Shown here: in pieces, positions 27,476 to 54,410 of the stretch | Layout of the letters: every line of letters begins with the position of its first letter | Numbering within the stretch: position 1 is the stretch's first letter | DNA from: Vairimorpha necatrix | Lineage: Eukaryota | Reading direction: 5' to 3' | NCBI GenBank assembly: GCA_036630325.1 | Contig: CP142728.1 | Location: 806,001 to 870,000 of the forward strand | Length of the DNA: 64,000 nucleotides | The notes under the pieces: generated by a model | What the model was told of the DNA's origin: nothing | Database searches by the model: none | What the model saw: only the letters and a program-made list of their open reading frames with translations | Made by a program: the position numbers and the translations under genes

Positions 27476-28722
27476 CACCAGGTTGATTCTGCCTGACGTA
27501 GACGCTATTCCCTAAGATTAACCCATGCATGTTTTTGATATGGAAAAATGGACTGCTCAGTAATACTCACTTTATTTAATGTATTAAATTAGTATAACTG
27601 CGTTAAAGTGTAGCATAAGACATATACAGTAAGAGTGAGACCTATCAGCTAGTTGTTAAGGTAATGGCTTAACAAGGCAATGACGGGTAACGGTATTACT
27701 TTGTAATATTCCGGAGAAGGAGCCTGAGAGACGGCTACTAAGTCTAAGGATTGCAGCAGGGGCGAAACTTGACCTATGGATTTTATCTGAGGCAGTTATG
27801 GGAAGTAATATTCTATTGTTTCATATTGTAAAAGTATATGAGGTGATTAATTGGAGGGCAAATCAAGTGCCAGCAGCCGCGGTAATACTTGTTCCAAGAG
27901 TGTGTATGATGATTGATGCAGTTAAAAAGTCCGTAGTTTATATTTAAGAAGCAATATGAGGTGTACTGTATAGTTGGGAGAGAGATGAAATGTGACGACC
28001 CTGACTGGACGAACAGAAGCGAAAGCTGTACACTTGTATGTATTTTTTGAACAAGGACGTAAGCTGGAGGAGCGAAGATGATTAGATACCATTGTAGTTC
28101 CAGCAGTAAACTATGCCGACGATGTGATATGATATTAATTGTATTAGATGATAGAAATTTGAGTTTTTTGGCTCTGGGGATAGTATGATCGCAAGATTGA
28201 AAATTAAAGAAATTGACGGAAGAATACCACAAGGAGTGGATTGTGCGGCTTAATTTGACTCAACGCGAGGTAACTTACCAATATTTTATTATTCAGAGAA
28301 GATTTTTAATCTGAGAATGATAATAGTGGTGCATGGCCGTTTTCAATGGATGCTGTGAAGTTTTGATTAATTTCAACAAGACGTGAGACCCTTTTATTAA
28401 TAGACAGACACAATCAGTGTAGGAAGGAAAGGATTAAAACAGGTCCGTTATGCCCTCAGACATTTTGGGCTGCACGCGCAATACAATAGATATATAATCT
28501 TTATGGGATAATATTTTGTAAGAGATATTTGAACTTGGAATTGCTAGTAAATTTTATTAAATAAGTAGAATTGAATGTGTCCCTGTTCTTTGTACACACC
28601 GCCCGTCGCTATCTAAGATGATATGTGTTGTGAAATTAGTGAAAACTACTTGAACAATATGTATTAGATCTGATATAAGTCGTAACATGGTTGCTGTTGG
28701 AGAACCATTAGCAGGATCATAA
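27476..28722 (+). rRNA. Microsporidian small-subunit (16S-like) rRNA
   Basis: CACCAGGTTGATTCTGCCTGAC start, GTGCCAGCAGCCGCGGTAA, GTACACACCGCCCGTC, GGATCATAA end; about 1.25 kb reduced length. Confidence 0.98.
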
Positions 28723-28751: not shown

Positions 28752-30352
28752 TTACTTTACCCACACATGGGATCAATAGGATACCATAACGATGAAGGTC
28801 GTAATAGAATACGAAATTATATTATTTACCTAATTAATATATTTATAATGTATTGATAACCCTTTGAACTTAAGCATATCATTAAAAGGAGGAAAAGAAA
28901 CTAACTAGGATTTCTTTAGTAGCAGCGAGTGAACAAGAAAAGACCCTCCATTGTAATCCTTAATTGGAGTTGTAAATGGTTTATTCTATTAATTATATTT
29001 ATAGAGAATATTATATTCGTTATTAATAGAATAGAATAATGTACTTGAGTAGAGCTGCTTGGTAGTGCAGTTTGAATAAAGGTAGAATGAAATATCTAAG
29101 GTTAAATATAATGGTATACCGATAGAAAATAAGTACTGCGAAGGAACTTGTGAAAATGTGTGGAGTTTAGCCTTATTTTTAAGGACCCGTCTTGAAACAC
29201 GGACCAAGGAGATTATAATTATAGCAAGATAAAAATTAAATTTTTTAATCTTTATTAACTTGATTAGTTATAATTATAAGACCCGAAACACAGTGAACTA
29301 TACATGTTCTGGTTGAAGATAAACAACAGTTTATTGGAAGACCATAATCATTCTGACGTGCAAATCGATGATTTAAGATGTGTATAGTGGCGAAAGACCA
29401 ATCGAACTGTGTGGTAGCTGGTTCACAGCGAAATGTCTCTCAGGACAGCAGTTATTATTATATAGGACATAGATGTAGGACACTGTTATAGTTTTTTAAC
29501 TATGAAAAATCTTTAATTCTATGGAATTATATAAATTAAATTTATATAATGAATCTATTGTATAACTAGTGGGCACATGATTGTAAGAATGATGTGCAAA
29601 AAGGGATGAACCTTATGAAACATTAAATATTCTAAATAGTAGATATTATACCATAAATATGATGAATACATTGAGACAGTAGGGCGGTTGTTATGGAAGT
29701 AGAAATCCGCTAAGAAACGTGTTACAACGTACCTACCGAATGTATTATTGTATAAAATGGAAGAAGATTACTACTTTTATGAGATGTTTCTAATAAATAT
29801 TTAGGTAGCTGTGCAATTTGTTTGTATTGAAGTATATATGTGAGTGTATATAGAAGAAACAAATGAGCTGATCTTGGAGGCAGTAACAATATATTTGTAT
29901 AGATATAGACTAGGGTTTTCAATTATTATTGAAGTGAATCGGTGTTATTTATAAAAACAAAAAAGATTAATAATTCTTTATTAAATTATTATAAGGTAAC
30001 TTGATAATGACAGTATATTTCAATAAATTTAAGATAAATGAATTAAATTTTATTTTAACTATGGATTGTCATGATAAGAAATAGTTAATTATATATACTT
30101 GATAAAAATAAAATAATTTTAACCGTACCTATACCGCATCAGGTGTCTTTGTATCATAACAAATATTTTAAATTAAAGTAAGTAAGGGAATTCGGCAAAT
30201 TAGATCTGTAACTTTGGGATAAAGATTGGCTCTAGCATGCTAGAACTTTTACTATGTAAGGAATCTGACTGTTTATTAAAAACATAGCTTTTTGTATTTA
30301 CAAGAAGTGAATTCTGCCCAGTGCATTTATTGTTAAAGTTGTGTAAGCGAAT

Positions 30353-30405
<53 letters not shown>

Positions 30406-30504
30406 TTAATTGGTGACGCGCATGAATGGAGCAACGAGATTCCTACTGTCCCTACTTACAATTTTGTGAAACCACGAGACAAGGGAACGGGCTTGTTATT
30501 TATC

Positions 30505-30536
<32 letters not shown>

Positions 30537-30971
30537 TTAGTATGTTTTAATAAATATTCGGTATATTGTAGAGAGGTGGGAGAAGTATTGTGAAACCACT
30601 AGTATGTTTGAATATTTATTTATTAGAATATATGGGGAGTTTGGCTGGGGCGGTACAGCTGTTAAAAAGTAACACAGCTGTCCTAAGGTAGATGAATGAT
30701 GGATGGTAACCATCAGTTTATTATAAGGGAATAAATCTGCTTTACTTTATGCATATGACTGTATTTAGTAGGGAAACCTTGGCCTAGCGATCCCAATTAC
30801 ATTCATTATGTATTGGGTGATTGAAAAGTTACCACAGGGATAACTGGCTTGTAGCAGGCAAGCGATCATAGCGACTCTGCTTTTTGATTCTTCGATGTCG
30901 TCTCTTCTGATCATCGTAGTGTATATGTTACGAAGTGTTGGATTGTTCACCCGGTAATGAGGAACGTGAGA

Positions 30972-31013
<42 letters not shown>

Positions 31014-31245
31014 TAAGTATTTTTGAGTGAACTTTGATAGTACGAGAGGAACTCTAAGTGATGACCACTGGTAGTGCGATTAACTATTAAGTTATGTTGC
31101 TTAGCTACGTCGTTTCGATTAAGGCTGAAGGCCTCTTAAGCCTGAAGCGTAGCTCAAAGATACATTTAGGAGAATACTACTCTTTTAAGCAGAACTGTAA
31201 GAATGAAGGTGTATGCCGACATTTTGAGGTTACTGCTTTTTTTGT
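28752..31245 (+). rRNA. Large-subunit rRNA with fused 5.8S
   Basis: ACGATGAAG 5.8S motif, GAACTTAAGCATATC, ACCCGTCTTGAAACACGGACC, TTAAGGTAGCCAAATGCCTC, sarcin-ricin loop AGTACGAGAGGAAC. The 3' end is uncertain (31240-31300). Confidence 0.95.
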
Positions 31246-31300
31246 ATGTAAAGTAGGTGTTGTATACTATAAGAGAGCGTACTTTATGTCTAGATTTGGT

Positions 31301-31368
31301 ACCCTTACAAGAGAGAGTCTACGTCGCGGAGGGCGGGACCGATGTTTTTTAACTAGGTGCAGATCTCT
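31301..31368 (+). ncRNA. HDV-like ribozyme, degenerate copy
   Basis: Homolog of 38377-38445 with changes in P1 (ACCCTT/GGAGGGC), P3 (GAG/CGC) and L3 (TCTACGT). Confidence 0.7.
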
Positions 31369-31374
31369 ACCAAA

Positions 31375-34271
31375 ATGAAGGGTAAAGTAAGAGAAAGCAG
31401 GAGCGAGCTCAGTAGAGCAAAAAGTGACCACTTTGGTGGTCCAAACAACGATTTAGATACAGAAATGTATTTAAAACAACAAACTAAGCATGTATATGCT
31501 AGTAAAAGTTTCCCAAGTGTTACTTTCAAAAATGATGGAGAAATGGGCGCAACGGTCAGAACCCGGACTTTCCATAATATTTTACGTACTGAATCCGGGT
31601 ACTGACCGTAAAGTGGGGAAATGTTTTTTACGAACCATATCCCCAAGAGTCGAAATTTTACAGATTTGTTTAAATTTCATTCGCATTAACATTTCTTGAG
31701 TTATAAACATTTTTGTTTTTTAGATGATTTTTTCAAAAATATTTTACCCTTATGGTATGTATGGAGCCGCTTGACAGTAGGTCGAAAATATTCCAAGACC
31801 CACATGAGGAAATATGTTGGTTAGTGGATGAAAATCTACTAAAAACAACAATGGAATGTACGAAATGTCCTGGTATAATGATATTAACACCGGACGATTC
31901 GTACATGAACTGCCACCGGTTTAAGTGTAGGGGGAAGACTGGATGTGGAACATCAATCGGAGTTTTTGATAAAACTTCATTTTCTAATCCCCGAATACCT
32001 ATACATAATTATTTGTATATTCTGTATTCGTTCACTGAAAAGCAGTCTACACTAAACCTAAACAAAAATTCCCGGGTGTCTGCTTCCAGTGTCTTCAGGG
32101 CTAAAAAAAAATATACGAAGCACTGAAAAAAGAAAATCTCAAACACCAAAAAAAAAATTGGAGGATTTGAAGAAGTGACACAGCCGATGAAACGGTTATA
32201 GTAAAGGGGAAGTTTGTCAAAGCTCCAACGGAAAGATATGACACAGTCAAAAACTGTGTGTGGTTGGTAGGGACGATAGACGAGCGAACGTTAGAACTGA
32301 GAATCGAAATAGTACCTAACCGGACTATACAGACGATGACTCGGTTTTTTGTAAAGTATATAAAAAACGACACTACATGCATAACTGATGGTCATAAATC
32401 TTATCCCGCTGCAGTAGAATCTATCAACGGTGATCATCGCGTTGTAATTCATGATGAAGGCTTTAAAACAAAGCAGTAGAGACCACAAACTTAATAGAAG
32501 GTGTTTGGTCACATCTTAAATGTGATATAATAGCTAGAAAAGGGATCAAAGAAAGTGCTATCCCTGATTTTTTGGAAGAATTTAAGTGGAGAAGAAGATG
32601 TGCAATTTATAAAAACATCAAAAGTTCAAGAGAGTTCTTCATTGAAATTATCAAAGTTTTCTTAGAATAAAATGGTTTTTTATTATTATTATTTTTTTTC
32701 GTTTCTCTCCAAGGGGGGACCCTTAGAGAGAAAAAAAGTCCGGGTTCTGACCGATGCGCCGAGAAATGAAATATTTTCTCAAGAAAATCAAAATTCTTTC
32801 AGAAAGAATTAATAAAAATGATATTTTGGACACATCAAAAAAAGATAACAATAAAGATCTTATTGATCTTAAAAGATACATATCTAGCACTACTGAATTA
32901 GTATTGATTCAGCAGACATATTTGGAGCTCTTCCATGACAAGCTAGAAAGACAAAACATCAAACTAAAAAATTTGATTAAAAATAATGTGATGGATGACA
33001 GTGATCAAATTACTGAATCATCAAAAAACAAATTTGAGATAATGATTGAGAATCACTCAAAAGAATGTGTAGAACAAAAGGATTATAACTCCGATGTTCC
33101 AAATGATACCAGTAGCGAAACCCTTCAGTTAGCTACTGGAAACAATGATATTTCTAAATTAGAAATCATAAATGAAGATGTTTTAATTAATGTCAAAAAT
33201 ATCGTGTCTGCTGTCAAAGTAGAAGAAGAAGATCGATTGTCAGAAGATGGCAAAAGAAAATGTATAGGTGTCTCAAATGCGTCTACAAATACTATAATTA
33301 ATAAAAATATTAAAACAAAAGATGTTAAGCTAGACTTAGCTTCCATTAATAAAAAAGCAGTAGTTAGACATCTGTCAACTATCTCTGCTATTATAGCTGG
33401 TAAAAGAAAAGCTCCTAAGAATGGAGTAAAACTTTACCATACAAATGAAGACGGATGGACATCTGTCAAACACACATTCAAGCCTAAAGTCCAGATAGAC
33501 TTGAAGAAAAACAGAAGTGGCAAAACCACGCATAAATCCAACTTTATTAGATTTAAATCACTTAAAGTAGAATCCGGTGGCAATGTAAAAGTGCCCAAAA
33601 ATTCTATTCATGCAGCTTTACATGAGAAAAACAAAATATCTACTAAAGACTATAAAAAAGAAAGATTACAAAATCATAAAATAAATTTTACTCAAAAAAT
33701 GAAGAATAGAAAAAATGAGAAATGTCAACAAAAAAGAAGTTCAGTTTTACCAAAGAAAAACTGGGCCAAAGAGCTATCAGACGAAGCTCTTATGAAAATT
33801 ATAAAGGATGGTAGAATTATTTCCAATTGTAAGTTTAGGATAGCTCTTGTGTCTGGACTCGGATTGAAAGGGAAACCTCAATCTAGAGACGCTTGGGCAG
33901 CCTTAGCTGATGTGGAAAATAAAGATATACCACTTATAAAACAATTTAAAGATTCGGAAGTAGTACTTCTGATGATTAGAGAACACGTGTGCCAAAAGGT
34001 ACTAAGCAAGATTAAAGAAAAGTTCGGAGGTTCTAATATCTGCGATGAAGTTAATTTCTTTATCGACTTTTTGTCTTTAACAAAAACAACTGTTCTAGGA
34101 GAGCTGCAAAGACTCTCTGGAACGCATAAAAATTTTGTACCGCTTGTAAAAGCATGTTGGTACATAACTAAAGAATTAAATAAAGAAAAGCCAAACCATG
34201 GTTCTTTCATTTATTTAGAAAATATGATGGGTGAGCCTGCCCGAGAATCTAAGGACTTTAACAATGAATAA
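31375..34271 (+). pseudogene. LINE ORF1 (basic, coiled-coil-like), split by a Merlin insertion at 31546-32760
   Basis: MKGKVRES...KNDGEM joins KYFLKKIK... once the transposon and one TSD are removed; matches the uninterrupted start of copy 2 at 39333. Confidence 0.9.
31546..32760 (+). mobile_element. Merlin (IS1595/ISXO2-like) DNA transposon, frameshifted transposase about 31752-32670
   Basis: 26-bp TIR GGCGCA(A/T)CGGTCAGAACCCGGACTTT; 8-bp TSD GAGAAATG (31538-31545, 32761-32768); ADET, WLVGTIDE, ITDGHKSY and IEGVWS motifs. Confidence 0.93.
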
Positions 34272-37200
34272 AGTATCTTTGTTAAAGTCCTGTTATTATA
34301 GGAAATTATTTTCCTATAACAAGAGTGATATTTTCAAATCTCTAAATAAAAAAACGCATAATCCAATTGGATTTACTCAGATTAAAAATACTTTCCAAAC
34401 GACAACGAGATTGAAAAGTCTCAAGTATTTTTTCATTAGAAAGAATATGTGGTGGAAGAAAGTACAAGAACAATATTGTATTGTCAAGATACAAAGAATT
34501 CCTTATGGAGTGAAAGATCTCCTCAAAGACTTATGTAAGAAGAACTCTTTTTTGGAGAATTCCATTATTACAGCAAGAAAATATAGACGAAGGGACACGT
34601 CATTCACAAAAATAATAGTTGAAAAACTACATGCAAAGTTATTGATTAAGACAGTTAAAGCTAAAGGCTTTAAAGTTTTAAATGATAATAGAAAAGAACT
34701 AGAGAAATCTAGTAAAGTAAATAAAAAGACCAAAGAGAACATAAAACTCTTAAGTCTAAACATTAACCATCTCTCTAATAAGAGATTAGAACTTGAGTTT
34801 CTTCTTAAGAAGGAGAAACCAGAAATTATGTGCTTACAGGAAACTTGGAGACAATCTACAAGACCTTTAAAACTTGAAAAATACACTACAGTTGAAACAC
34901 CTAGTGGTGGAAAAAATAAACCAGGATTAATAACTCTGGTTAGAAATAATGGAGCGATCAGATGTTCCAAAAAAGGAACCGACTCAAACATTCTGCAAAC
35001 TGTAGTTGAGTTTAGTTCAGCAGGCAAATGGATTAAGTATTTAGTCTTAAATGTCTACATACCACAAAACAAGGATCTCAAAAGGGAGACCTTGGCCAGA
35101 TTATTTTCTCTTTTAGAAAAAGAGAATTTCAGAAATAACTATAGTGAGATCATAGTGATGGGAGATATGAATATGCAGAGTTCTAGTCTCAAGAAAAAAT
35201 TAAGTGTAGTTGGTTTGCCAGTTACAATTAAATATAACAGCAAAGATGGTACAAGGATTCTCAAAGATGGTAAAAGATCTAAGAGGAAAATTGATACCAT
35301 CTTTCGACTAAAAAGTAATGATAATGAGAAGATCATTATATCCAAGTCTTGGGTATTAAGTGATCACTTAGTGCTCAAAAGAAAAATTAAACTTGCCGTT
35401 GATAAGATCTCAGATCAACTAGTTTATGATAAGAAAATGCTGGAAAATCCAAAAGTGATTAAAAAGCTTAAAAAGAAGTTGTGTAATCAACAATTAAACA
35501 TGAATAATCTTCCTGAGATTATTCAAAAAGTTTGTACATCTTTGAAGATTTACAAAAAGAGAAGATTCCATACTGGACTTACAATGAGATGGAGATATTT
35601 AAAAGTCTTCAAAGAAAAACGTCTAGCAGCAAGAGCTGTTATGAAAAATTACAATGAAATCAACTCAATTAGATTCGAATATCTCAAAAAGAGAGTAGAC
35701 GAAACTAAAAAGTTGATTCGCAAAGATAGATCGAAACTTTGGGCTTTAAGAGGAATAAGGTTCTTTAAAAGTAATAGATCCCGAGAATTCTGGCAATGGC
35801 TGAAAAATAGAAGTGTCTCCATTCGTTTGGATCAAGTGGCTCTAATTGACCACAATAAGATTCTTCAGACTTGCCGAGCAAAGAAGCTAGAAATAGCGAA
35901 TAAATTTTACGCTGATTTGGCGTCAGAGAATGATATAGATGTCAATGTCTATGATAAAGTAGATCTTGTTGATCTTCCCCCAGAGATAACAGATGAAGAA
36001 TTTTTATCCGCACTGAAGAAATGTGGAAATAACAAAGCAGCCGGTCCTGATGAGATTCCAACCGAGCTATACAAATACTTACTGACTAGAGCAGTAAAAG
36101 ATAAATTCTTTAAATTCATGCTACATGAATTTAATAAATATATTTGTGGAAATAGTCCTCCTGAATACTGGAGCATGGCAAACATGATTTGCCTCCACAA
36201 AAAAGGAGATGAGACAGATCTGAATAATTATAGGGGAATCTCTTTAATTAACACAATTAGTAAGATCTATCTCAAGATAATAAATGACAGGTTAACTCAA
36301 TTTGTCGAAGAACAAGATATACTCTCTAGATACCAAGCAGGATTCCGAGCAGGTGAAGAGTGTATGAATCAGATTACATCTCTACTAGAAATAGTGAGAA
36401 GAAGAGAATTCAGAGGCCTGAACACAATAATGTGTTTCATTGACTTTGAAAAAGCTTATGATAATGTAAGTCATGACTTATTATTTGAGAAGCTTACAAA
36501 ACTTAATATCCCATTGTATTTAATCAATACAATAAAGGATATTTATAAATATACCACCATGCGTGTGAAAATTGGCGGTGACACGTCAAGTGGTTATAAC
36601 TACAGAAAAGGAGTGAGACAAGGGTGCCCTTGTTCTCCAATGCTATTCAATATATTCATCAATGATATTTTTGACGGCATAGAAGGAGTTTTGATCCCAA
36701 GGTCAAATACGAGAGTTCCGGGACTGATGTTCGCAGATGATATTGTTGTCTTCGGAAACAACATTGATGATCTTAATAATAAGATCAATAGAATTTCTAA
36801 TTGGGCAGTTAATAACAGAATGAAGATTAACTGCTCAAAAAGCGGAGTATTAGAATGGGCTGCTCATTCTAACATACAAGAATTCCGAAGTTTGTATTCT
36901 CTCAGTACAGACTTTGGTGTGATTGAGGAAGTCACTGAATACAGATATCTAGGTGTCTTAACTAAAAGAAACACGCTAGAAGAACACTTGGTCAAAGACG
37001 CAGCAATGCGTGGCAAGAAAGCCTTGGACGCCTTGATGCCCAAGTTGATGAATGGCAGCATCAATCTCTACTTCAAGGCGATCTTAATAAAATGTGTACT
37101 AGTACCCACACTAATGTATGGCAGTGAATTGTGGGGAATGTCAAGTACAAGAGCAGGTAAGATTAACAGGATCTTAAGAAAATCTATCAGAATGATATTC

Positions 37201-37956
37201 AAAAGAGTATTAGTTCCACTAGATAGAGTAATGGACGAGTTCAGTATCGAACGAATTCATATACAAGCAGCTCTAAGTAGATTTAGAGCATACAACAAGT
37301 GGAAACACAATAAGACAATCATATCGGATATAATCTCAATCAATCCGAAAGAAAGAAAAACTACCTGGTGTTCAAGAACACAAAGATGGTTAAAACGATT
37401 TGTCGGCAACGATTATGAATCAAGTGATAGTAGATTTATCACTACAAAAATAATTGATGTACTAAGAAGTCGAAGAACTCTAAATACTTCTTTAGCTGCA
37501 TCAATAGCAAATCAATATGACATAAGAAATTCACAAATAAAATATGTCATGAACAAAATAAATAATAGAAAAATTAGAACATATACTAGATTGAGATGTA
37601 ATCTAGTAAAGTGGTCCTCAGCAATAGCATATTCAAAAAGAATACCAATGAGTTATAGAAACAAATGCTTTTTGTGTGATGGACCACAAGAAAATTTAGA
37701 ACACTTTCTGCTGGAGTGCGTCTGTTTAACTGACATTAGATCATCTTTTGAAAATAAACTGCCTCTACTGACTTGTTCAAAAACAAATAACCAAGAAAAA
37801 ACCAAATTACTTCTTGGTAATAAAATCGGATTAAGAAACAACCCAGAAAAGATAAAAGAACTTTGTTGGACTATAGAGTTCTTAGATAGAATGGTTGTCT
37901 CTAGAAGAATTATATTTGAAAAGAAACTTAAGGAGATAACGAAACAAGGTAATTAA
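34264..37956 (+). CDS. LINE ORF2: AP endonuclease + reverse transcriptase + CCHC zinc finger (intact, about 1230 aa)
   Basis: SLNINHL, CLQET, VMGDMN, IDTIF, SDH; KAAGPDEI, FIDFEKAYD, QGCPCSP, FADD, YRYLG; CFLCDGPQENLEHFLLEC. ATG at 34264 overlaps the ORF1 end (ATGAATAA). Confidence 0.96.
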   Translation: MNKVSLLKSCYYRKLFSYNKSDIFKSLNKKTHNPIGFTQIKNTFQTTTRLKSLKYFFIRKNMWWKKVQEQYCIVKIQRIPYGVKDLLKDLCKKNSFLENSIITARKYRRRDTSFTKIIVEKLHAKLLIKTVKAKGFKVLNDNRKELEKSSKVNKKTKENIKLLSLNINHLSNKRLELEFLLKKEKPEIMCLQETWRQSTRPLKLEKYTTVETPSGGKNKPGLITLVRNNGAIRCSKKGTDSNILQTVVEFSSAGKWIKYLVLNVYIPQNKDLKRETLARLFSLLEKENFRNNYSEIIVMGDMNMQSSSLKKKLSVVGLPVTIKYNSKDGTRILKDGKRSKRKIDTIFRLKSNDNEKIIISKSWVLSDHLVLKRKIKLAVDKISDQLVYDKKMLENPKVIKKLKKKLCNQQLNMNNLPEIIQKVCTSLKIYKKRRFHTGLTMRWRYLKVFKEKRLAARAVMKNYNEINSIRFEYLKKRVDETKKLIRKDRSKLWALRGIRFFKSNRSREFWQWLKNRSVSIRLDQVALIDHNKILQTCRAKKLEIANKFYADLASENDIDVNVYDKVDLVDLPPEITDEEFLSALKKCGNNKAAGPDEIPTELYKYLLTRAVKDKFFKFMLHEFNKYICGNSPPEYWSMANMICLHKKGDETDLNNYRGISLINTISKIYLKIINDRLTQFVEEQDILSRYQAGFRAGEECMNQITSLLEIVRRREFRGLNTIMCFIDFEKAYDNVSHDLLFEKLTKLNIPLYLINTIKDIYKYTTMRVKIGGDTSSGYNYRKGVRQGCPCSPMLFNIFINDIFDGIEGVLIPRSNTRVPGLMFADDIVVFGNNIDDLNNKINRISNWAVNNRMKINCSKSGVLEWAAHSNIQEFRSLYSLSTDFGVIEEVTEYRYLGVLTKRNTLEEHLVKDAAMRGKKALDALMPKLMNGSINLYFKAILIKCVLVPTLMYGSELWGMSSTRAGKINRILRKSIRMIFKRVLVPLDRVMDEFSIERIHIQAALSRFRAYNKWKHNKTIISDIISINPKERKTTWCSRTQRWLKRFVGNDYESSDSRFITTKIIDVLRSRRTLNTSLAASIANQYDIRNSQIKYVMNKINNRKIRTYTRLRCNLVKWSSAIAYSKRIPMSYRNKCFLCDGPQENLEHFLLECVCLTDIRSSFENKLPLLTCSKTNNQEKTKLLLGNKIGLRNNPEKIKELCWTIEFLDRMVVSRRIIFEKKLKEITKQGN

Positions 37957-38376
37957 TATGAATAATTAAAAAAATGAAGATCTAGAAATAGAAGAAAGAG
38001 ACGTTGATTTATTAACAAGAAGACTTATATTTAATTATATTTGACCTGGGAGAGGTCGGGCATGATACTGATGCTGTATTGTTCCGCTGAACTGAGTCGT
38101 GTTCTTAAATGGTGTATTGAGCCAGGCGTTTTCGTTTTTCATTAGACCCATGAAAGTGGGTCTCTAGTCATATTATGACTAAGGATGTGTCCTATGGGAA
38201 CAAACTTTTCTCCTACAAGCGAGGCCGTTAAGGTATGCTGGCGTGTAAGCGCACTTATTGATGATTTTTTCTTTATTAGTGGAGTTTTTGGTGCTTTGGA
38301 GGCTTTTCTTCGTTTTGCTGATTCTGTCTTTTTTTACAATAAACAATTTTAATTTTTTTTTTAGGTGCAGATCTCT

Positions 38377-38445
38377 ACCCTCCACAAGAGAGCGTCCACG
38401 TCGCGGAGGGTGGGACCGATGTTTTTTAACTAGGTGCAGATCTCT
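38377..38445 (+). ncRNA. HDV-like self-cleaving ribozyme (intact nested double-pseudoknot fold)
   Basis: P1 ACCCTCC/GGAGGGT, P2 AGAGA/TCTCT, P3 GCG/CGC, L3 TCCACGT, P1.1 CC/GG, P4 ACC...GGT, J4/2 GCAGA with the putative catalytic C at 38437. Confidence 0.88.
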
Positions 38446-38872
38446 AAGTCTTACCAACCTTCGGCTGCTGGTTGGTAAGTAGGGTCAGCTATACTCTAGG
38501 GGTGGGAGACCCATTGCTGGTGAGAAGAACGCCGTTAACTTTCGAGTAATTCTTCATATTTTTAACCTGGGAGAGGTTGGGCATGATACTGAAGCTGTAT
38601 TGTTCCGCTGAACTGAGTCGTGTTCTTAAATGGTGTATTGAACCAGGCGTTGTGTTTTCGTCAGGTCCGCGAAATATGTAGTCAGAGATGACTAAGGATC
38701 TGTTACCTACGGGAACAAATTTTTCTCCTACAAGCGAGGCCGTTGAGGTATGCTGGCGTGTAATCGCAATTATTGATGTTTTTCTGGTTGGTGGAGTTTT
38801 TGGTGGCTTGGTGGCTTTTCTTCGTTTTGCTGATTCTTTCTTTTTTACAATAAACAATTTTATTTTTTTTTT
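38446..38872 (+). mobile_element. Non-autonomous SINE/SIDE-like unit 1 sharing the LINE 3' tail
   Basis: About 120-nt head, then ACCTGGGAGAGG...ACAATAAACAATTTT(T)n homologous to LINE 3' UTR 38044-38362; 441-bp periodicity with unit 2. Confidence 0.85.
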
Positions 38873-39315
38873 AGGTGCAGATCTCTAAGTCTTACCAACC
38901 TTCGGCTGCTGGTTGGTAAGTAGGGTCAGCTATACTCTAGGGGTGGGAGACCCATTGCTGGTGAGAAGGACACCGTTAACTTTCGAGTAATTCTTCATAT
39001 TTTTAACCTGGGAGAGGTTGGGCATGATACTGAAGCTGTATTGTTCCGCTGAACTGAGTCGTGTTCTTAAATGGTGTATTGAACCAGGCGTTGTGTTTTC
39101 GTCAGGTCCGCGAAATATGTAGTCAGAGATGACTAAGGATCTGTACCTACGGGAACAAATTTTTCTCCTACAAGGGAGGCCGTTGAGGTATGCTGGCGTG
39201 TAAACGCAATTATTGATGTTTTTCTGGTTGGTGGAGTTTTTGGTGGCTTGGAGGCTTTTCTTCGTTTTGCTGATTCTGTCTTTTTTTACAATAAACAATT
39301 TTATTTTATTTTTTT
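38873..39315 (+). mobile_element. Non-autonomous SINE/SIDE-like unit 2
   Basis: Near-identical to unit 1; begins with AGGTGCAGATCTCT; followed by AGTCTTACCAAC. Confidence 0.85.
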
Positions 39316-42300
39316 AGTCTTACCAACACCCTATGAAGGGTAAAGCGCAACAAACCAGGAGCAAGCTCAGTAGAGCAAAAAGTGACCACTTTGGTGGTCC
39401 AAACAACAATTTAGATACAGAAATGTATTTAAAACAACAAACTAAGCATGTATATGCTAATAAAAGTTTCATAAGTGTTACTTTCAAAAATGATGGAGAA
39501 ATGAAATATTTTCTCAAGAAAATCAAAATTCTCTCAGAAAGAATTAATAAAAACGATATTTTCGACACGTCAAAAAAAGAAAATAACAAAGATCTTCTTG
39601 ATATTAAAAGATACATATCTAGCACTACTGAATTAGTATTGATTCAGCAGACATATTTGGAGCTCTTCCATGATAAGCTAGAAAAACAAAATATCAAATT
39701 AAAAAATTTGAAAAAAAATAATCTGATGGATGACAGTAATCAAATTACAGAATCAACAAAAAATAAAATTGAGATGATGATAGAGAATCACTCAAAAGAA
39801 TATGTAGAACAAAAGGATAATAACTCCGATGTTCCAAATGATACCAGTAGCGAAACCCTTCAGTTAGCTACTGGAAACAATGATATTTCTAAATTAGAAA
39901 TCATCAATGAAGATGTTTTAATTAATGTCAAAAATCTCCCATCTGCTGTCATAAATCTCGACACTGCTGTCAAAGTAGAAGAACAAGATAAATTGTCAGA
40001 AGATGGCAAAAGAAAATGTATAGATGTTTCAAAGGCATCTACAGATATTATAATTAATAAAAATATTAAACCAAAAGATGGTAAGCTAGATATAGCTTCC
40101 ATTAACAAAAAAGCAGTAGTTAGACATCTGTCAACTATCTCTGCTATTATAGCTGGTAAAAGAAAAGCTCCTAAGAATGGAGTCAAGCTTTTCCATATAA
40201 ACGAAGACGGATGGACATCTGTCAAACACACATTCAAGCCTAAAGTCCAGATAGACTTGAAGAAAAACAGAAGTGGTAAAACCACAGATAAAACCAACTT
40301 TAATAGATTTAAATCACTTAAAGTAGAAACTGGTGGCAATGTAAAAGTGCCTAAAAAGATTAATCATGAAGCTGTAAAGAGAAAAGATATCATTCATAAA
40401 AAAGATCATGAAAAAAGAAGATTACTAAATCAGAAAATAAATTTTACAAAAAAAAACGAAGGACAGAAAAAATGAGAAATGTCAACAAAAAAGAAGGCCA
40501 GTTTTACCAAAGAAAAACTGGGCCAAAGAGCTAACTGAAGAAGCTCTTATGAAAATTATAAAGGACGGTAGAATTATTTCCAAATGTAAGTTTAGGCTAG
40601 CTCTTGCTTCTGGACTCGGATTGAAAGGGAAACCTCAATCTAGAGACGCTTGGGCAGCCTTAGCTGATGTGGAAAATAAAGATATACCACTTATAAAACA
40701 ATTTAAAGACTCGGAAGTAGTACTTCTGATGATTAGAGAACACGTGTGCCAAAAGGTACTAAGCAAGATTAAAGAAAAGTTCGGAGGTTCTAATATCTGC
40801 GATGAAGTTAATTTCTTCATCGACTTTTTGTCTTTAACAAAAACAACTGTTCTAGGAGAGCTGCAAAGACTCTCTGGAACGCATAAAAATTTTGTACCGC
40901 TTGTAAAAGCATGTTGGTACATAACTAAAGAATTAAATAAAGAAAAGCCAAACCATGGTTCTTTCATTTATTTAGAAAATATGATGGGTGAGCCTGCCCG
41001 AGAATCTAAGGACTTTAACAATGAATAAAGTATCTTTGTTAAAGTCCTGTTATTATAGGAAATTATTTTCCTATAACAAGAGTGATATTTTCAAATCTCT
41101 AAATAAAAAAACGCATAATCCAATTGGATTTACTCAGATTAAAAATACTTTCCAAACGACAACGAGATTGAAAAGTCTCAAGTATTTTTTCATTAGAAAG
41201 AATATGTGGTGGAAGAAAGTACAAGAACAATATTGTATTGTCAAGATACAAAGAATTCCTTATGGAGTGAAAGATCTCCTCAAAGACTTATGTAAGAAGA
41301 ACTCTTTTTTGGAGAATTCCATTATTACAGCAAGAAAATATAGACGAAGGGACACGTCATTCACAAAAATAATAGTTGAAAAACTACATGCAAAGTTATT
41401 GATTAAGACAGTTAAAGCTAAAGGCTTTAAAGTTTTAAATGATAATAGAAAAGAACTAGAGAAATCTAGTAAAGTAAATAAAAAGACCAAAGAGAACATA
41501 AAACTCTTAAGTCTAAACATTAATCATCTCTCTAATAAGAGAGAAGAACTTGAGTTTCTTCTTAAGAAGGAGAAACCAGAAATTATGTGTTTACAAGAAA
41601 CTTGGAGACAATCTACAAGACCTTTGAAACTTGAAAAATACACTGCAGTTGAAACACCTAGTGGTGGAAAAAATAAACCAGGATTAATAACTCTGGTTAG
41701 AAATAATGGAGCGATCAGATGTTCCAAAAAAGGAACCGACTCAAACATTCTGCAAACTGTAGTTGAGTTTAGTTCCGCAGGCAAATGGATTAAGTATTTA
41801 GTCTTAAATGTCTACATACCACAAGACAAGGATCTCAAGAGGGAGACCTTGGCCAGATTACTTTCTCTTTTAGAAAAAGAGAATTTCAGAAATAACTATA
41901 GTGAGATCATAGTGATGGGAGATATGAATATGCAGAGTTCTAGTCTCAAGAAAAAATTAAATGTAGTTGGTTTGCCAGTTACAATAAAATATAACAGCAA
42001 CGATGGTACAAGGATTCTCAAAGATGGTAAAAGATCTAAGAGGAAAATTGATACCATCTTTCGACTAAAAAGTAATGATAATGAGAAGATCATTATATCC
42101 AAGTCTTGGGTATTAAGTGATCACTTAGTGCTCAAAAGAAATGTTAAACTTACTGTTGATAAGATCTCAGATCAACTAGTTTATGATAAGAAGATGCTGG
42201 AAAATCCAAAAGTGATTAAAAAGCTTAAAAAGAAGTTGAGTAATCAACAATTAAACATGAATAATCTTCCTGAGATTATTCAAAAAGTTTGTACATCTTT

Positions 42301-42898
42301 GAAGATTTACAAAAAGAGAAGAGTCCATACTGGTCTTACAATGAGATGGAGATATTTAAAAGTCTTCAAAGAAAAACGTCTAGCAGCAAGAACTGTTATG
42401 AAAAATTACAATGAAATCAACTCAATTATATTCGAATATCTCAAAAAGAGAGTTGACGAAACTAAAAAGTTGATTCGCAAAGATAGATCGAAACTTTGGG
42501 CTTTACGAGGAATAAAGCTCTTTAAAAGTAATAGATCCCGAGAATTCTGGCAATGGCTGAAAAATAGAAGTGTTTCCATTCGTTTGGATCAAGTGGCTCT
42601 AATTGACCACAATAAGCTTCTTCAGACTTGCCGAGCAAATAAGCTAGAAATAGCGAATAAATTTTACGCCGTATTAGCGTCAGAGAATGATATAGATGTC
42701 AATGCCTATGATAAAGTAGATCTTGTTGATCTTCCCCCAGAGATAAAAGATGAATAATTTTTATCCGCACTGAAGAAATGCGGAAATAACAAAGCAGCCG
42801 GTCCTGATGAGATTCCAACCGAGCTATACAAACACTTACTGACTAGAGCAGTAGAAGAAAAATTCTTTAAATTCATGCTACATGAATTTTTTAAATAT

Positions 42899-45800
42899 TG
42901 TGGTCTGTTGGTTTCCCAACAGACCGAGAAGAATGTTTTAAGCCATATTTTTTATTATCCTTCATACCCTTCTGGGCATGAATTTCTTTTATGTTTGTCG
43001 GAGGGAAAATATACAATATTTTCCCTCCAAAAACATAATTGGGAAGAGGAAGAGAATACTTATAGAATAGTATTCTCTGGTCTCCAGGGTAATCTTAGGA
43101 CCACTGGAGAACTGTTCCTTGACACTCCCCCCTTCTTTATTGGCTCCCATGTTTCCAGCTCAAAGTCCATCTTTTTTAAGTCTTTCCCATTTACCTTAAA
43201 CACGTCATTATTGGGATTTTTTATCTCGTATGCACCTTTCCTCCCGACTTTCGTTATAGCGTATGGGCCTTCAAATTTGCTGTCTAGTTTATTTCTAATG
43301 CTTATAGGTGGTTTTCTTCTTAATACCACATCACCTACTTGAAGTGCAAATTCTTTCCCCTCTACTATTTCCCTTTCTCTGGCCTCTCTTTCGGCTTGTA
43401 ACATAGTATCACGGGTTTGCTTCAATCTTTCAAATATTAAAAAATTATCTTCTAAACATAAGAGTTCTCTTTCGGGATGCTCCCATAATAAGGGTTTCCG
43501 TCCGTATAATAATTCAAAAGGAGAAAATCCTGTCTTCTTCCTCGGAGAAATTCTGTATGCGTACAGAGCCAGTTCAAAATCTTCATCCCAGTCTTTCCAC
43601 CTTCCATTTATCATTTTAGCCAGTTTTGCTACTAATGATTGGTTGGTTCTCTCTACCGTGCCATTGCATTGTGGGTGGTAAGCTGAAGTAAAAGATTTCT
43701 TTATTTTAAATATTCCACATAATTCCTTGACCGTGTTGTTCAAAAATTCAAGTCCTCTATCTGATAGTAATTCGTTGGGCGGACCATGTCTACATACTAT
43801 TTCTTCAAAAATAAATTTAGCTACCGTCTTAGCCGATTTATTTCTCACGGCTTTTGCTTCGCACCATCTTGTTAGATAATCCGTGGCAACTATTAAATAT
43901 GTTTTCCCATTTTCCGACTTAGGTAGAGGACCTACCATATCAATTCCTATCAGTGAAAATGGGTCCTTGAGTCGAATTCTATGATGTTGCTTTGGTGTTC
44001 TTTTTAAATTAAATTTTAGACACACCTGACATTTTTCGAGTTCCTGTTTAATATCTGCGTACATACCTTTCCATTTTGTTTTATCGAGAACTAAAGCATA
44101 TGTTGGATACATACTGCCATGTCCACACTCTTCGTGACATTTTAAAATCAGTTCTTTACGACTCTCGGCCGATAATTCTAGTTCATCTTCATAATTTACT
44201 ACATGAACAAATCTCGTTAGTCCGTCCGCTATAATGTTCTCTTTGCTTTTTATATATTCAATGTCATATGAGTAGTTTTAGAGTGTGAGAATCCATCTCA
44301 TTAATCTACCAGTGCTCTCTTTATAACTCAGCAGCCATTTGAGGGCGTGATGATCTGTTCGAATTGTAAAAGTATTTGTTAGGTAAATCCGGAACTGGGA
44401 TATGCTCCATATTATTGCCAAGCATTCCTTTTCGGTTACGGTGTAATTAATTTCAGCAGTATTTAATTTCCTTGAGATAAAATATACGGGCATTTCAGTC
44501 TTCTCGTATCTTTGCATCAGTGTTGCTCCTATGTAAAGGTTGGATGCATCTGTGTATAAGATAAATCTCTTATTGAAGTCCGGTAACTTGAGAACGGGAG
44601 AGCTCGTAATAATTTCTTTTATTTTCCCTACACTTTGTTTTGCTTCTTCAGAAAAATATAAATTTACCTTTCTTCAAGCAGTCATAGATAGGAGCCATTA
44701 TATCTGTATAATTCCTTATAAATTTTCTAAAATAGTTTATGAACCCAATAAAGGCTCTAGTTTCTTTAAGAGTGGCTGGGATTTTTAAATTAAGACATTT
44801 CGTCTGTTGCTCAAGTGGTATACTTACTCCATTCTTATTTATCGTATATCCCAAAAAATTCACCGTATTCTTTCCGATTTTACATTTTTTGTGATTAACT
44901 TTCAATTTCAATTTGTTTAAAATTTCAAAAACTGCTTCAATGTGCTTTACGTGCTCTTCAATCGATCTAGAGTATATCATAATGTCGTCTAGATATACTT
45001 GTACAAATTTATGTAGGTACGGAGACAGTATAGAATTCATTATCTTATGGAATGTAAAGGGTGCATTTACGAGTCCAAATGGCATCCTAACCCATTGAAA
45101 CGTTTTTGTCCTACTCCTAATAGCTGTAAGATATCTATCTTTTCCCGAATTCTTATTTGATGGTACCCAGATTCCAAGTCCAATACTGTAAATATAGATG
45201 CTCCTTGTAATTCTTCTATAGTTTCTTATACAAGTGGAATAGGATAGATCATCTTCTTTGTGATTTTATTCAACCTTCTAAAGTCTATGCAAAATCTAAT
45301 ATCACCATTAGGTTTCTTGACAAGAACCACCGGGGAAGTATAGTCTGATTCACTGTTCTCAATAAATCCTATACTCAAAAACTCTTGAATCTTACTTTCA
45401 ATAATCTCGTTTTGTTCTGGAGATCTTCTGTATTGAATATTTCTTACTTCCGAAAAGTCATTTGTTATTTCTATGGCGTGCTCAATATCTAAGCTTGATT
45501 TTAAATCATTATTGTGGAAAACAGCTGGATACTTTGAGATAAGTTTATTAAATTTTTCTTTGTCCTCCTGTGCCGTGTCTTCTTCTCCGACGTCTACAGT
45601 TTGAGTTTCGAGTACTTCGGGAGTTGTTGTGCAGACTGATTTTGTTATTAACGCATTTCTCATCTTATCAAGAATTTTGAGTAAGTTCAGATTTAGAACA
45701 TCTGAGAGGCCAATAATAAGGTCTTCTGGTAAGTTTTCTACTACATGTGCTTCTAATATTCTCGTTTTCTTAGTTTTAGGCTCTTTGACACTAAATTCCA

Positions 45801-46906
45801 CTATGCCTTCTGATTTCACTGTACCGCCCACTCCTACTATATTCAGGGTCTCTTTTCTTGGATTCAGACCCAATAGTTGGGCCTTCTTTTTATTAATGCA
45901 ATTAATTTCCGCTCCCGTGTCAATGAGCGCAGCAATCTTTTCTCTCCCTGAAAAAAAATTAATCCTTGCTCGGACATCCGATAAATTATCGTTTTTAGCC
46001 ACTCTACCTATCTTTAGGATTAATGAAGAATTTGTCTGTACTGCTTTCTTGGGGACAGTTTTATATTCTTTCATTTCTTGACAGGTTACTTTATTCTGTG
46101 GCTTTTTAAAAAAAGTTTTCCTTTTCTTTAGGTATTTATTTATTAAAAAATCCTTTTCTTCTACGAGTTCTAGTAACTCTATCCACTCTTTGGTTTCACT
46201 GATCGCCTCCTTTAATATCTCGGGGGAGTTTCTTCCAATCGCAATCTTAGATCTCTCAAAGTGCTCAATGCTTCCTTTAGCACACCTTTTTAGGTCATAA
46301 GCGTAACTCAAGATGTCGCTTTCCTTCGGACCCTCTACGTATAGGTGCATGAATAGATCTGTTACGTCTTCCACTAGTTTTTTTTTTTAGGTATTTTTTA
46401 TTAAAGTGGGATTTGAATGTCTCGTAATCTACAATCTCCTCGCCCTCAAAAGCTTTAAAACATTTCAACGCTTTGCCTTTTAGTTTTGACTTGGCAATAT
46501 CTAGCGTCTTCGCTTGAGAGTACACATCTTCAATTTCTCGAAATTGAGACAGAAAGTCTTCGGCTTTGTTCAGATCTTCGCCGGTAAATTCTAACCATCT
46601 GTTCTGAAGACATAGTTTTTTCATTTGAGAAAGGATGTTGTCGAGATCATCGCTCTTATCCTCATCATCGTTACCACCATTGTGGTCTGTTGGTTTCCCA
46701 ACAGACCGAGAAGAATGTTTTAAACCATATTTTTTATTATCCTTCATACCCTTCTGGGCATGAATTTCTTTTATGTTTGTCGGAGGGGAAATATACAATA
46801 TTTTCCCTCCAAAAACATTATTGGGAAAAGGAAGATAATACTTATAGAATAGTATTCTCTGGTCTCCAGGGTAATCTTAGGACCACTGGAGAACTGTTCC
46901 TTGACA
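42899..46906 (-). mobile_element. Ty3/gypsy retrotransposon, 226-bp LTRs, TSD AATAT, disrupted gag-pol
   Basis: LTRs 42899-43124 and 46681-46906 (TG...CA); AATAT at 42894-42898 and 46907-46911; PBS TGGTGGTAACG; PPT 43125-43138; IDTGA, YLDD and integrase motifs. Confidence 0.95.
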
Positions 46907-49089
46907 AATATATTTGTGGAAATAGTCCTCCTGAATACTGGAGCATGGCAAACATGATTTGCCTTCACAAAAAAGGAGATGAGACAGATCTGAATAATTA
47001 TAGGGGATCTCCTTAATTAACACAATTAGTAAGATCTATCTCAAGATAATTAACGACAGATTGACACAATTTGTTGAAGAAAATAACATCATCTCTAAAT
47101 ACCAAGCAGGATTAGAGAAGGCTAAGAATGTATGAACCAAATTACTATCCTACTTGAAGTAGTAAGAAGAAGAGAATTCAGAGGCGTGAACACAGTGATG
47201 TGTTTCATAGACTTTGAGAAAGCTTATGATGATGTAAGTCATGACTTATTATTTAGTAAGCTAGAAAATCTAGATATCCCCAGGTATTTGATAAATACAA
47301 TAAAGGATATCTATAAAAGCACCACCATGCGAATAAAAATCGTCGGGGAAACATCAAGTGGCTATAACTACAGAAAAGGGGCGAGGCAGGGGTGCCCCTG
47401 TTCTCCAATGCTGTTCAATATATTCATAAGCGATCTTTTGATGACATAGATGGTGTCTTGATTCAAAGATCAAATACAAGAGTTCCAGGACGGATGTTCA
47501 CCGATGATATCGTTGTCTTTGGAAACAACATTGATGATCTAGAAAATAAGATCAAAAGAATTTCGAAATGGGCAGTTGACAACAGAATGAAAATTAACTG
47601 CAAGAAGAGTGGAGTATTAGAATGGAATGTTAAATCTAATATTCAAGAAATTAGAAGTTTGTATTCCATCAATACAGACTTTGGCATGATTGAAGAAGTC
47701 ACAGAATATAGATATCTATGTGTTTTAATAAAGGAAACGCACTTGAAGAACATTTGGTCAGAGACGCGGCAATGCGTGGATCGAAACCCCTAGACGCCCT
47801 GATGCCTAAGTTGATGAATAATAGCATCAACCTCTATTTAAAGGCGATCTTAATAAAATGTTTACTAGTACCCACACTAATGTATGGTAGTGAATTGTGG
47901 GGAATGTCAAGTACAAGAGCAGGTAAGATTAACAGGATCTTAAGAAAATCAATGAGGATGATATTCAAACGAGTATTAGCTCCCCTAGATAGATTATTGG
48001 ACGAATTCAGTATCGAACGAATTCATATACAAGCAGCTTTAAGTAGATTTAGAGATACAACAAGTGGAAACACAATAAGACAATAATATCGGATATAATT
48101 GCAATCAAACCGAAAGAAAGAAAAACTACCTGATGTTAAAGAACACAAAGATGGTTAAAACGATTTGTCGGCAACGAATACGAATCAAGTGATAGTAGAT
48201 TTATCACTTCAAAAATAATTGATGTACTAAGAAGTCGAGAACTCTAAATACTTCCTTAGCTGCATCAATAGCAAATCAATATGACATAAGAAATTCACAA
48301 ATAAAATATGTCATGAACAAAATAAATAATAGAAAAATTAGAACATATACTAGATTGAGATGTAATCTAGTAAAGTGGTCCTCAGCAATAACCAATTCAA
48401 AAAGAATATCTATGAGTTATAGAAATAAATGCTTTTTGTGTGATGGACCACAAGAAAATTTAGAACACTTTCTGCTAGAGTGCGTCTGTTTAACTGACAT
48501 TAGAACATCTTTTGAAAATAAACTGCCTCTACTGACTTGTTCAAAAACAAATAACCAAGAAAAAACCAAATTACTTCTTGGTAATAAAATCGGATTAAGA
48601 AACAACCCAGATAAGATAAAAGAACTCTGTTGCATAAAAGACTACTTAGACAAGATGGTTGTCTCTGGAAGAATTATATTTAATAACAAACTTAAAGAGA
48701 TAACAAAACAAGATAATTAATATAGAATAATTAAAAAATGTAGATCTAGAAATAGAAGAAAGAGGCGTTGATTTATTAACAAGAAGACTTATACTTAATT
48801 ATATTTGACCTGGGAGAGGTCGGCCATGATACTGATGCTGTATTGTTCCGCTGAACTGAGTCGTGTTCTTAAATGGTGTATTGAGCCAGGCGTTTTCGTT
48901 TTTCATCAGACCCATGAAAGTGGGTCTCTAGTCATATTATGACTAAGGATGTATCCTATGGGGACAAACTTTTCTCCTACAAGCGAGGCAGTTAAGGTAT
49001 GCTGGCGTGTAAACGCGATTATTGATGTTTTTCTTATTGGTGGAGTTTTTGGTGGCTTAGTGGCTTTTCTTCGTTTTGCTGATTCTGTC

Positions 49090-54168: not shown

Positions 54169-54410
54169 GTCGTGTAATTAAATGGTGTATTGAACCAGGC
54201 GTTGTGTTTTCGTCAGGTCCGCGAAATATGTAGTCATAGATGACTAAGGATCTGTTACCTACGGCAACAAATTTTTCTCCTACAAGCGAGGCCGTCGAGG
54301 TATGCTGGCGTGTAAACGCAATTATTGATGTTTTTCTTTATTGGTGGGTTTTTTGGTGGCCTTCTTCGTTTTGCTGATTCTGTCTTTTTACATAAACAAT
54401 TTTATTTATT
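54169..54410 (+). mobile_element. 5'-truncated copy of the SINE/SIDE-type tail
   Basis: GTCGTG..TAAATGGTGTATTGAACCAGGCG..TCAGGTCCGCGAAATATG matches units 1 and 2 rather than the LINE variant; ends CATAAACAATTTTATTTATT. Confidence 0.85.

Follow-up and report, generated by a model that had tools for sequence, protein, structure and literature searches.

A candidate HDV-like ribozyme in the rDNA 3' spacer of Vairimorpha necatrix, at a boundary between units of an L1-like retrotransposon array

A sequence of 69 nucleotides (nt) from the microsporidian Vairimorpha necatrix contains all the elements of the self-cleaving ribozyme fold of hepatitis delta virus (HDV). It lies on the forward strand at 38377-38445 of the stretch of DNA analysed here, hereafter the window (64,000 nt; positions 806,001 to 870,000 of contig CP142728.1, assembly GCA_036630325.1), at a boundary between units of a head-to-tail array of retroelements found behind the large-subunit (LSU) rRNA gene. 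We consider it probable that these 69 nt are a functional HDV-type ribozyme of the 3' external transcribed spacer (3' ETS) of the ribosomal DNA (rDNA), which would cut the read-through RNA made by RNA polymerase I (Pol I) into the RNAs of an L1-like long interspersed nuclear element (LINE) and of its partner of ~440 nt. Animals and trypanosomatids are known to have HDV-like ribozymes that free the RNA of retrotransposons without long terminal repeats (non-LTR) from cotranscripts of the host. If the candidate is active, this mechanism would extend to the Microsporidia, a fungus-related group with very reduced genomes, to an L1-like element with an endonuclease of the apurinic/apyrimidinic (AP) type, and to a new rDNA niche, i.e. 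the 3' spacer directly behind the LSU.

A complete HDV-like fold at 38377-38445

The candidate was checked pair by pair. P1 is made of seven Watson-Crick pairs between ACCCTCC (38377-83) and GGAGGGT (38405-11); a 3-nt J1/2 (ACA, 38384-86) separates it from the first strand of P2, a helix of five pairs formed by AGAGA (38387-91) and TCTCT (38441-45). P3, in which GCG (38392-94) pairs with CGC (38402-04), closes the 7-nt loop L3 (TCCACGT, or UCCACGU as RNA, 38395-38401), and the 3' strand of P1 comes directly after it. The second and third bases of L3, C38396 and C38397, face G38413 and G38412, the two Gs that follow P1, and give the two C-G pairs of P1.1. P4 associates ACC with GGT (38415-17/38433-35), to which the minimum free energy (MFE) fold adds GUU/AAC (38421-23/38428-30) and a UUUU loop. 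J4/2 reads GCAGA: three bases, A-G-A, stand between the proposed catalytic base, C38437, and the 3' strand of P2 (P2'). The order P1, P2, P3, P1.1, P4 and the dimensions of the elements are those of the canonical nested double pseudoknot. An earlier note on this DNA had stated that every element of the HDV fold is present in order, and all the pairings that it named were found in place. Left unconstrained, the MFE fold of the 69 nt forms exactly P1, P3 and P4, with both strands of P2 single-stranded.

The sequence signatures of the family were also looked at. The catalytic C is described as the first position of J4/2 in HDV-like ribozymes (PMC10879173); at the sequence level C38437 holds this place, a few bases before P2', with a G preceding it here. 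L3 offers the U and the G of the conserved reverse wobble as well as the two Cs of P1.1, and a conserved G in L3 is reported for HDV-like ribozymes (PMC3774820). In the one ribozyme for which PMC4908430 reports the effect of the P1-P2 spacer, 0 nt was inactive and 1 nt gave little activity; the 3-nt J1/2 is within the range that worked there. According to the same source, HDV-type ribozymes cut at the first base of P1, and a cut is predicted here 5' of A38377.

To be retained by our descriptor, a sequence had to combine a P1 of 7 bp (G-U pairs allowed), a J1/2 of 0-8 nt, a P2 of at least 5 pairs, a P3 of 3 pairs, an L3 of 7-8 nt, a P1.1 of 2 pairs, a P4 of at least 3 pairs and a C four bases before P2'. 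On the real window it returned the candidate and one low-complexity locus made of T/A-runs (54024-54111, minus strand); 25 dinucleotide shuffles of the whole window, searched on both strands, gave a single match in total. The candidate lies in a GC-richer local stretch (38362-38460), composition-keeping shuffles of which yielded 0 matches out of 20,000 (9 out of 20,000 with a looser version of the descriptor). When the P1/P3 hairpin was kept fixed and only the 59 nt downstream were shuffled, matches were found in 134 of 50,000 dinucleotide and in 22 of 50,000 mononucleotide shuffles. The fold is therefore real and beyond chance, and neither base composition nor a pre-existing hairpin is by itself sufficient to explain it. 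A looser descriptor picked up 10 further loci in the window; they are AT-rich or within coding sequence, none is at the 5' end of an element, and they were put down to chance.

The best-matching curated model was that of the mammalian CPEB3 ribozyme (Rfam RF00622; 18.3 bits, E-value of 0.006 on 91 bases), which aligned with P1 and with P3-L3-P3, with one difference from the consensus in L3. The model misaligned P4, J4/2 and P2', and the context of CPEB3 is an intron of a mammalian gene: the candidate is not a member of the CPEB3 family.

Location past the end of the LSU rRNA

The candidate has the same orientation as the rRNA genes of the window, i.e. a microsporidian small-subunit (SSU) gene (27476-28722, plus strand; Rfam RF02542, 1057 bits) and an LSU gene (28837-31245, plus strand; Rfam RF02543), the conserved core of which ends at ~31245-31252. 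A degenerate version of the 69 nt is found on the plus strand at 31301-31368, with 4 substitutions and 1 deletion relative to 38377-38445. These two copies are called below the rDNA-proximal copy and the array copy, respectively.

Our first working idea was that the candidate is simply the 3' end of the LSU rRNA. In its developed form, this reading makes of the 69 nt a duplicate of the last ~58 nt of the mature rRNA (H99-H101) followed by 11 nt of spacer, P1 and P3 being ribosomal helices. It has for it that the Rfam LSU model, in scans of the whole window and of 30700-31500, aligned through to 31358 (363.2 bits, mean posterior 0.85) and so covered 31301-31358, the homologue of 38377-38434. 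However, once the input was cut at 31300, the same model scored slightly higher (365.1 bits), with a mean posterior of 0.94, and ended at 31245. There, H100 is AGGAG/CUCUU with a 7-nt loop and H101 carries the conserved GUAAG and UGAG motifs, both upstream of the candidate region; in the alignment ending at 31358, a loop of low confidence takes up the H100/H101 bases, and several pairs of the terminal helices are non-standard. The 69 nt are thus not required for the best alignment of the LSU model. The slightly higher score and the cleaner alignment argue that the LSU core ends at ~31245-31252, which puts the fold in the 3' ETS, ~55 nt past that core, with a small doubt remaining. The working idea was dropped on this re-alignment, and an origin of the 69 nt as a piece of mature rRNA appears very improbable. 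Given the two near-equal ends (31358 and 31245), the LSU gene of this rDNA would probably come out ~110 nt too long in automatic annotation. The LSU core itself ends in a T-run (31239-31245).

The version that stands behind the LSU in other sequencing runs

The rDNA-proximal copy of the window is damaged: P1 is weakened, the middle pair of P3 is broken and one C of P1.1 is gone, and P1 does not form in its MFE fold. Four public sequencing runs, X1, X2 and X3 among them, were compared as contigs. In X1, a single contig (429 nt, depth of 53) covers the 3' region of the LSU and passes from 31200-31303 straight into 38375-38502 with 0 differences: it has the intact ribozyme right behind the LSU, with an extra ACCCT before it and the 5' sequence of a mini-element (see below) after it. 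A 151-nt contig of X3 links 31259-31306 with 38384-38486; the core is intact and P1 has six pairs (ACCCUU, including one U.G). Both X1 and X3 thus show the intact version to be the common one, the rDNA-proximal copy of the window being a mutated outlier. The position 31301, taken in the earlier note for the start of a second copy, is indeed where the homology starts, but what begins there is the damaged copy of the rDNA-proximal 3' ETS and not another copy of the element. We had initially noted that all five differences between the window copies improve the fold of the array copy, as a hint of selection; this was re-read once X1 and X3 had shown the intact version to be the common one.

Junctions of the array and a proposed mechanism

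Behind the LSU and a spacer of ~55 nt, the units follow one another in this order: the rDNA-proximal ribozyme copy with its terminal 14-mer, a first LINE copy, a 14-mer, the array ribozyme copy with its terminal 14-mer, a first mini-element, a 14-mer, a second mini-element and a second LINE copy. The 14-mer, AGGTGCAGATCTCT, is both the last 14 nt of the ribozyme (J4/2 + P2') and a junction sequence. It has four exact copies in the window, starting at 31355, 38363, 38432 and 38873, against 0.22 expected by chance. Of these exact repeats, all on the plus strand, that at 38363-38376 directly precedes the array ribozyme, as a junction or target-site-duplication copy, and that at 38873-38886 stands between the two mini-elements. 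All the junctions of the window fit, as far as their sequences tell, one rule: insertion at the 14-mer, which is duplicated on both sides.

The first LINE copy (31369-38362, plus strand, delimited by its open reading frames (ORFs), Pfam matches and a 3' untranslated region (UTR) that ends in a T-run) has two ORFs. ORF1 starts at ATG 31375, 7 nt behind the rDNA-proximal ribozyme copy, and its remainder extends to 34271 on the plus strand, the frame being split by a 1.2-kb foreign insertion (31538-32760). ORF2 (34264-37956, plus strand, 1230 aa) encodes an N-terminal AP-type endonuclease (Pfam Exo_endo_phos, 2.2e-05) and a reverse transcriptase (RVT_1, 5.7e-39). Mini-element 1 (38446-38872, plus strand; repeat families D1, D2, D4, D9, D13 and D19) consists of ~110 nt of 5' sequence of its own, starting with AAGTCTTACCAAC, followed by the LINE 3' UTR and T-run. 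Mini-element 2 (38887-39315, plus strand, defined by repeat families and sequence) has no ribozyme. This unit of ~440 nt, present in two copies, looks like a non-autonomous partner of the LINE. The second LINE copy (39316-49090, plus strand) is broken; it starts with AGTCTTACCAAC right after the T-run, without ribozyme and without 14-mer, and its ORF1 ATG (39333) comes after a 5' leader of 17 nt.

The array ribozyme copy starts right behind a 14-mer, at A38377, the first base of P1. The assignment leaves an ambiguity of 0-2 nt: CT stands before this A in the X1-type source, and the 14-mer, too, ends in CT. The cleavage site inferred in the earlier note coincides with this 5' boundary, and a start at or near the predicted cut, behind a 14-mer, fits the reverse transcription of a ribozyme-cut RNA. 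A contig of X2 in which a T-run and ACC are followed by a match from 38375 on, i.e. a T-rich tail and then ACCCT-ACCCTCC (21 loose letters are visible), reads as a second, different junction starting at a P1-like ACCCT. Also in X2, LINE bodies that are 5'-truncated, at 35047, 35126, 34732 and 33083, come immediately after T-runs; such junctions are typical of incomplete reverse transcription and show that the family moves by this route.

From these sequences we infer the following scheme. RNA polymerase I would continue beyond the LSU and transcribe the ribozyme together with the elements that follow, and the ribozyme would cleave at its 5' boundary, in front of A38377 or of the base that corresponds to it. 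The resulting element RNA would begin with the ribozyme and would have the ORF1 start codon 7-19 nt behind it. The endonuclease of the element would nick at the 14-mer of a resident ribozyme, so that the new copy would land directly behind a ribozyme, with the 14-mer duplicated. In the usual case, the ribozyme part of the cDNA would pair with the resident copy and give a clean junction without duplication, in agreement with the model put forward for those R2 elements whose cut is upstream in the 28S; occasionally, a full-length cDNA would be joined end-on, leaving a 14-mer and then a complete ribozyme, as at 38363-38445. As to the history of this array, a full-length ribozyme plus mini-element may have inserted first, at the 14-mer of the resident rDNA-proximal ribozyme; LINE copy 1 would have come later, at the same 14-mer, without a ribozyme of its own and without the first 7 nt of its leader. 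The earlier note placed the ribozyme in a retroelement: the retroelement context holds, but the ribozyme is at a boundary between elements and its last 14 nt are a recurrent junction or target sequence.

The spacer in front of the rDNA-proximal copy was also compared with the ribozyme. Part of it (31254-31300, plus strand) is, in local alignment, weakly similar to the 14-mer followed by the first 19 nt of the ribozyme. For 31254-31280, aligned with the 14-mer and the 5' part of the ribozyme (TAGGTG..AAGAGAGCGT), the score of 22 was matched by 100 of 5000 shuffles (p ~0.02, uncorrected). A blastn-short search of the spacer (31236-31300) against the window returned short chance matches only, among them one 10-nt match to the ribozyme, AAGAGAGCGT, with an E-value of 2.6. 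By its sequence, the stretch 31254-31300 may be an older, decayed copy of the ribozyme.

The junctions can also be read with the ribozyme belonging to the host. It would then be an active ribozyme of the rDNA, the cut in the 3' ETS freeing the pre-rRNA and aiding termination by polymerase I, and the elements would merely exploit its 3' edge. Such a reading accommodates the intact or near-intact copy behind the LSU in X1 and X3, and the fact that all the full or truncated elements of the array are behind a 14-mer or a T-run, none being inside the ribozyme. It is harder to reconcile with the complete ribozyme copy at 38377, within the element array, which moves with the elements; with the decayed 14-mer + ribozyme that the spacer seems to contain, which suggests repeated import; and with the damage to the rDNA-proximal copy of the window, where the rRNA genes look intact. 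We regard sole ownership by the host as decidedly unlikely; a role in pre-rRNA processing overlaps, however, with the explanation that we favour, and the arrangement raises the question of the part taken by the ribozyme in the 3' processing of the pre-rRNA of these parasites. In a more far-reaching version, for which we see limited odds, every functional rDNA unit would bear an active HDV-type ribozyme ~55 nt past the LSU, making the 3'-spacer cut instead of a protein nuclease. The LINE and its partner would target the 3' strand of this ribozyme, even 5'-truncated copies would thereby regain Pol I transcription and a ribozyme-made 5' end, and the spacer would consist of layered decayed copies.

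Arguments against an active ribozyme

Several results weigh against a functional ribozyme that cuts element RNAs from a Pol I transcript. Some concern the fold itself. The cleavage-site pair is A38377-U38411 and not a G.U wobble. J4/2 reads C-A-G-A from the proposed catalytic base on, and GCAAA stands in place of J4/2 in one X2 contig end, which is a weak point. P2 has only five pairs, P4 is imperfect, and P1 could be lengthened by upstream bases, in competition with P1.1. The G.U wobble at this pair is conserved in HDV; we take it as typical, not as defining.

Others concern the models and the energy. The CPEB3 score of 18.3 is below the gathering cut-off of that family (35). At gathering thresholds, the Rfam scan of the whole window detected SSU and LSU only and no HDV-type family, and none appeared at E-values up to 10 in a 1.2-kb scan (37800-39000). 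At -19 kcal/mol (z = -0.15), the folding energy of the intact copy is unremarkable, and 83 of 200 shuffles reach a fold just as stable; with z = +0.59 for the damaged copy, energy is uninformative as evidence. The snoRNA, miRNA and sRNA matches of the 37800-39000 scan (E-values up to 10) were considered chance.

A third group bears on the copies and their boundaries. The rDNA-proximal copy of this window is the damaged one. Among the three variants available (the two window copies, X1 being identical to 38377, and that of X3), the changes in P1 are one-sided, U.G or A/G to C-G; this variation is compatible with the fold and includes no true covariation. The homology between the window copies does not stop as sharply as the earlier note had it, i.e. 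exactly at the cut site: the 5' boundary does coincide with the predicted cut, but within the 0-2 nt of ambiguity given above, and in our own reading of the alignment 9 of the 15 nt upstream are identical as well. The likeness of the spacer to the 14-mer + ribozyme further softens the claim of an exact boundary. Lastly, the role of the 14-mer may be limited to that of a target site.

Together with these points, the fact that the same sequence is the rDNA-proximal spacer in X1 and X3 leaves some room for a plainer reading: the 69 nt would be ordinary 3' ETS, e.g. a processing hairpin, carried into the array by unequal recombination or by retrotransposition, through the truncated reverse transcription of a read-through RNA of rRNA and element, and the HDV-like fold would be inactive. 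Junctions that share 0-2 nt are typical of microhomology-mediated joining of truncated cDNAs (PMC3774820), and the ordinary energy, the absence of an Rfam family past its cut-off, the A-U pair at the cleavage site and the lack of covariation speak for it as well. It does not account, however, for the rarity with which P1.1, P4, the spacing of the C and P2' arise once the P1/P3 hairpin is given (0.04-0.27% of shuffles), nor for an L3 that fits both the conserved U, CC, G pattern and the CPEB3 model. Two different junctions, moreover, begin at a P1-like ACCCT, and the location, directly before LINE ORF1, is a known place of such ribozymes. We rate inactive spacer, the main rival, as rather unlikely, and an HDV-type ribozyme active on the read-through RNA as the probable state of affairs.

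Comparison with known ribozyme-bearing retrotransposons

HDV-like ribozymes are reported to process the RNAs of R2, R4, Dong, Baggins and L1Tc (PMC3774820; PMC3185411), and the analogy drawn in the earlier note with ribozymes at the 5' ends of R2, RTE and L1Tc RNAs proved apt. [quoted passage not shown] At the sequence level the same layout is met here: a non-LTR element behind the LSU, on the same strand, with an HDV-type fold at or upstream of its 5' junction, predicted to cut the rRNA cotranscript, upstream target sequence that would remain at the RNA's 5' end, and either clean junctions or target duplications. The candidate is reminiscent of the ribozyme system of R2, with a host group and an rDNA position that are both new.

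The differences are as follows. Members of the R2 clade have a single ORF, a C-terminal restriction-like endonuclease and the R2 site of the 28S, whereas the present element has two ORFs, is L1-like with an AP-type endonuclease, and has its site in the 3' ETS past the LSU and not within the 28S. The whole ribozyme is here upstream of the insertion point, its 3' strand being the recurrent junction 14-mer; the tails are T-rich and not A-rich, and the host is a microsporidian. This arrangement constitutes a compact natural test of the R2 model, according to which the 5' junction is guided by upstream sequence that stays on the RNA: at the 3' edge of a resident ribozyme, one sees both clean junctions and one duplication of the entire ribozyme.

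In Trypanosoma cruzi, the HDV-like Pr77 ribozyme is at the extreme 5' end of both L1Tc and NARTc, an autonomous LINE and its non-autonomous partner (PMC3383444, PMC3185411). In a similar manner, the LINE and the 440-nt mini-element of V. necatrix have in common the position of the ribozyme, the 13 nt that come first behind it and the tail at the 3' end. However, L1Tc is dispersed and its first 77 nt are also an internal promoter, whereas the present elements are clustered behind the rDNA, with no indication of a promoter function.

In full-text literature searches we found no paper on an HDV-like or other self-cleaving ribozyme from microsporidia, in line with the earlier note, which knew of no described example. 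As far as the table of a 2024 review of transposable elements in rDNA goes, only miniature inverted-repeat transposable elements (MITEs) are given for microsporidia (PMC10946416).

Protein relatives of the LINE exist at 40-60% identity. The nearest to ORF2 are unnamed proteins (59-60% identity), and the nearest named one is a 'LINE-1 reverse transcriptase like protein' of Nosema granulosis (49%). Elsewhere, the ribozyme pattern had 0 matches in metagenome contigs, where the 53 pattern matches obtained with ORF2 included 0 relatives; among viral contigs, ORF2 aligned to six homologues found 0 relatives. In prokaryote genome contigs, ORF2 and the six homologues hit 3 loci at 26-28% identity, which were regarded as distant LINE contaminants and left unused.

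Other features of the array

The 1.2-kb insertion in ORF1 of LINE copy 1 is skipped, 31537 being joined to 32761, in one X1 contig and in four X2 contigs (depth of ~3085), and LINE copy 2 is also without it. A 124-aa ORF within this insertion (31752-32126) had no Pfam match. At its start, 5 nt behind the ribozyme, mini-element 1 contains a perfect 10-bp hairpin, CTTACCAACC/GGTTGGTAAG (38450-59/38470-79), with a 10-nt loop, repeated in mini-element 2 at 38891-38920. A tRNA origin of the mini-element was considered and rejected, no tRNA being found in it.

The summed contig depth over the 3' UTR/mini-element region (38036-39315) is ~2x10^5 in X2, versus 10-4000 for the LINE body and the LSU end; the corresponding values in X1 are ~130 versus 9-85. 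Depths summed over contigs are a crude gauge; taken as they are, the values suggest a great amplification of either the short partner or the tail region. Some loose contig ends of X2 have a T-run, then AGCCAATCTG, then ACCCACCACAAGA (consensus agreement of 0.66, 5 contigs), and another departs after 38413 into ACCAATGTTTATTATAACTGGGTGCAAA. To judge from their sequences, these ends suggest a diverged sister family.

The ends of the elements (38350-38362, 38863-38872, 39298-39315 and 54395-54410) are T-rich runs, and not poly(A), that come after an AATAAA-like ACAATAAACAA. A dispersed, 5'-truncated copy (~54169-54400) is also behind a T-run, and the target preference seems, from these sequences, to include the T-run.

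LINE copy 2 is itself interrupted by an LTR retrotransposon on the minus strand (42897-46906), with genes for an aspartyl protease (45226-46350), a reverse-transcriptase fragment (44648-45085) and an integrase (43060-44112). Direct repeats of 228 nt, 98% alike, bound it on either side (42897-43124 and 46679-46906). The 3' UTR of LINE copy 2 is broken off at 49090 by unrelated sequence, and a more diverged copy of the tail is found at 56496-56548 (81% identity over 53 nt).

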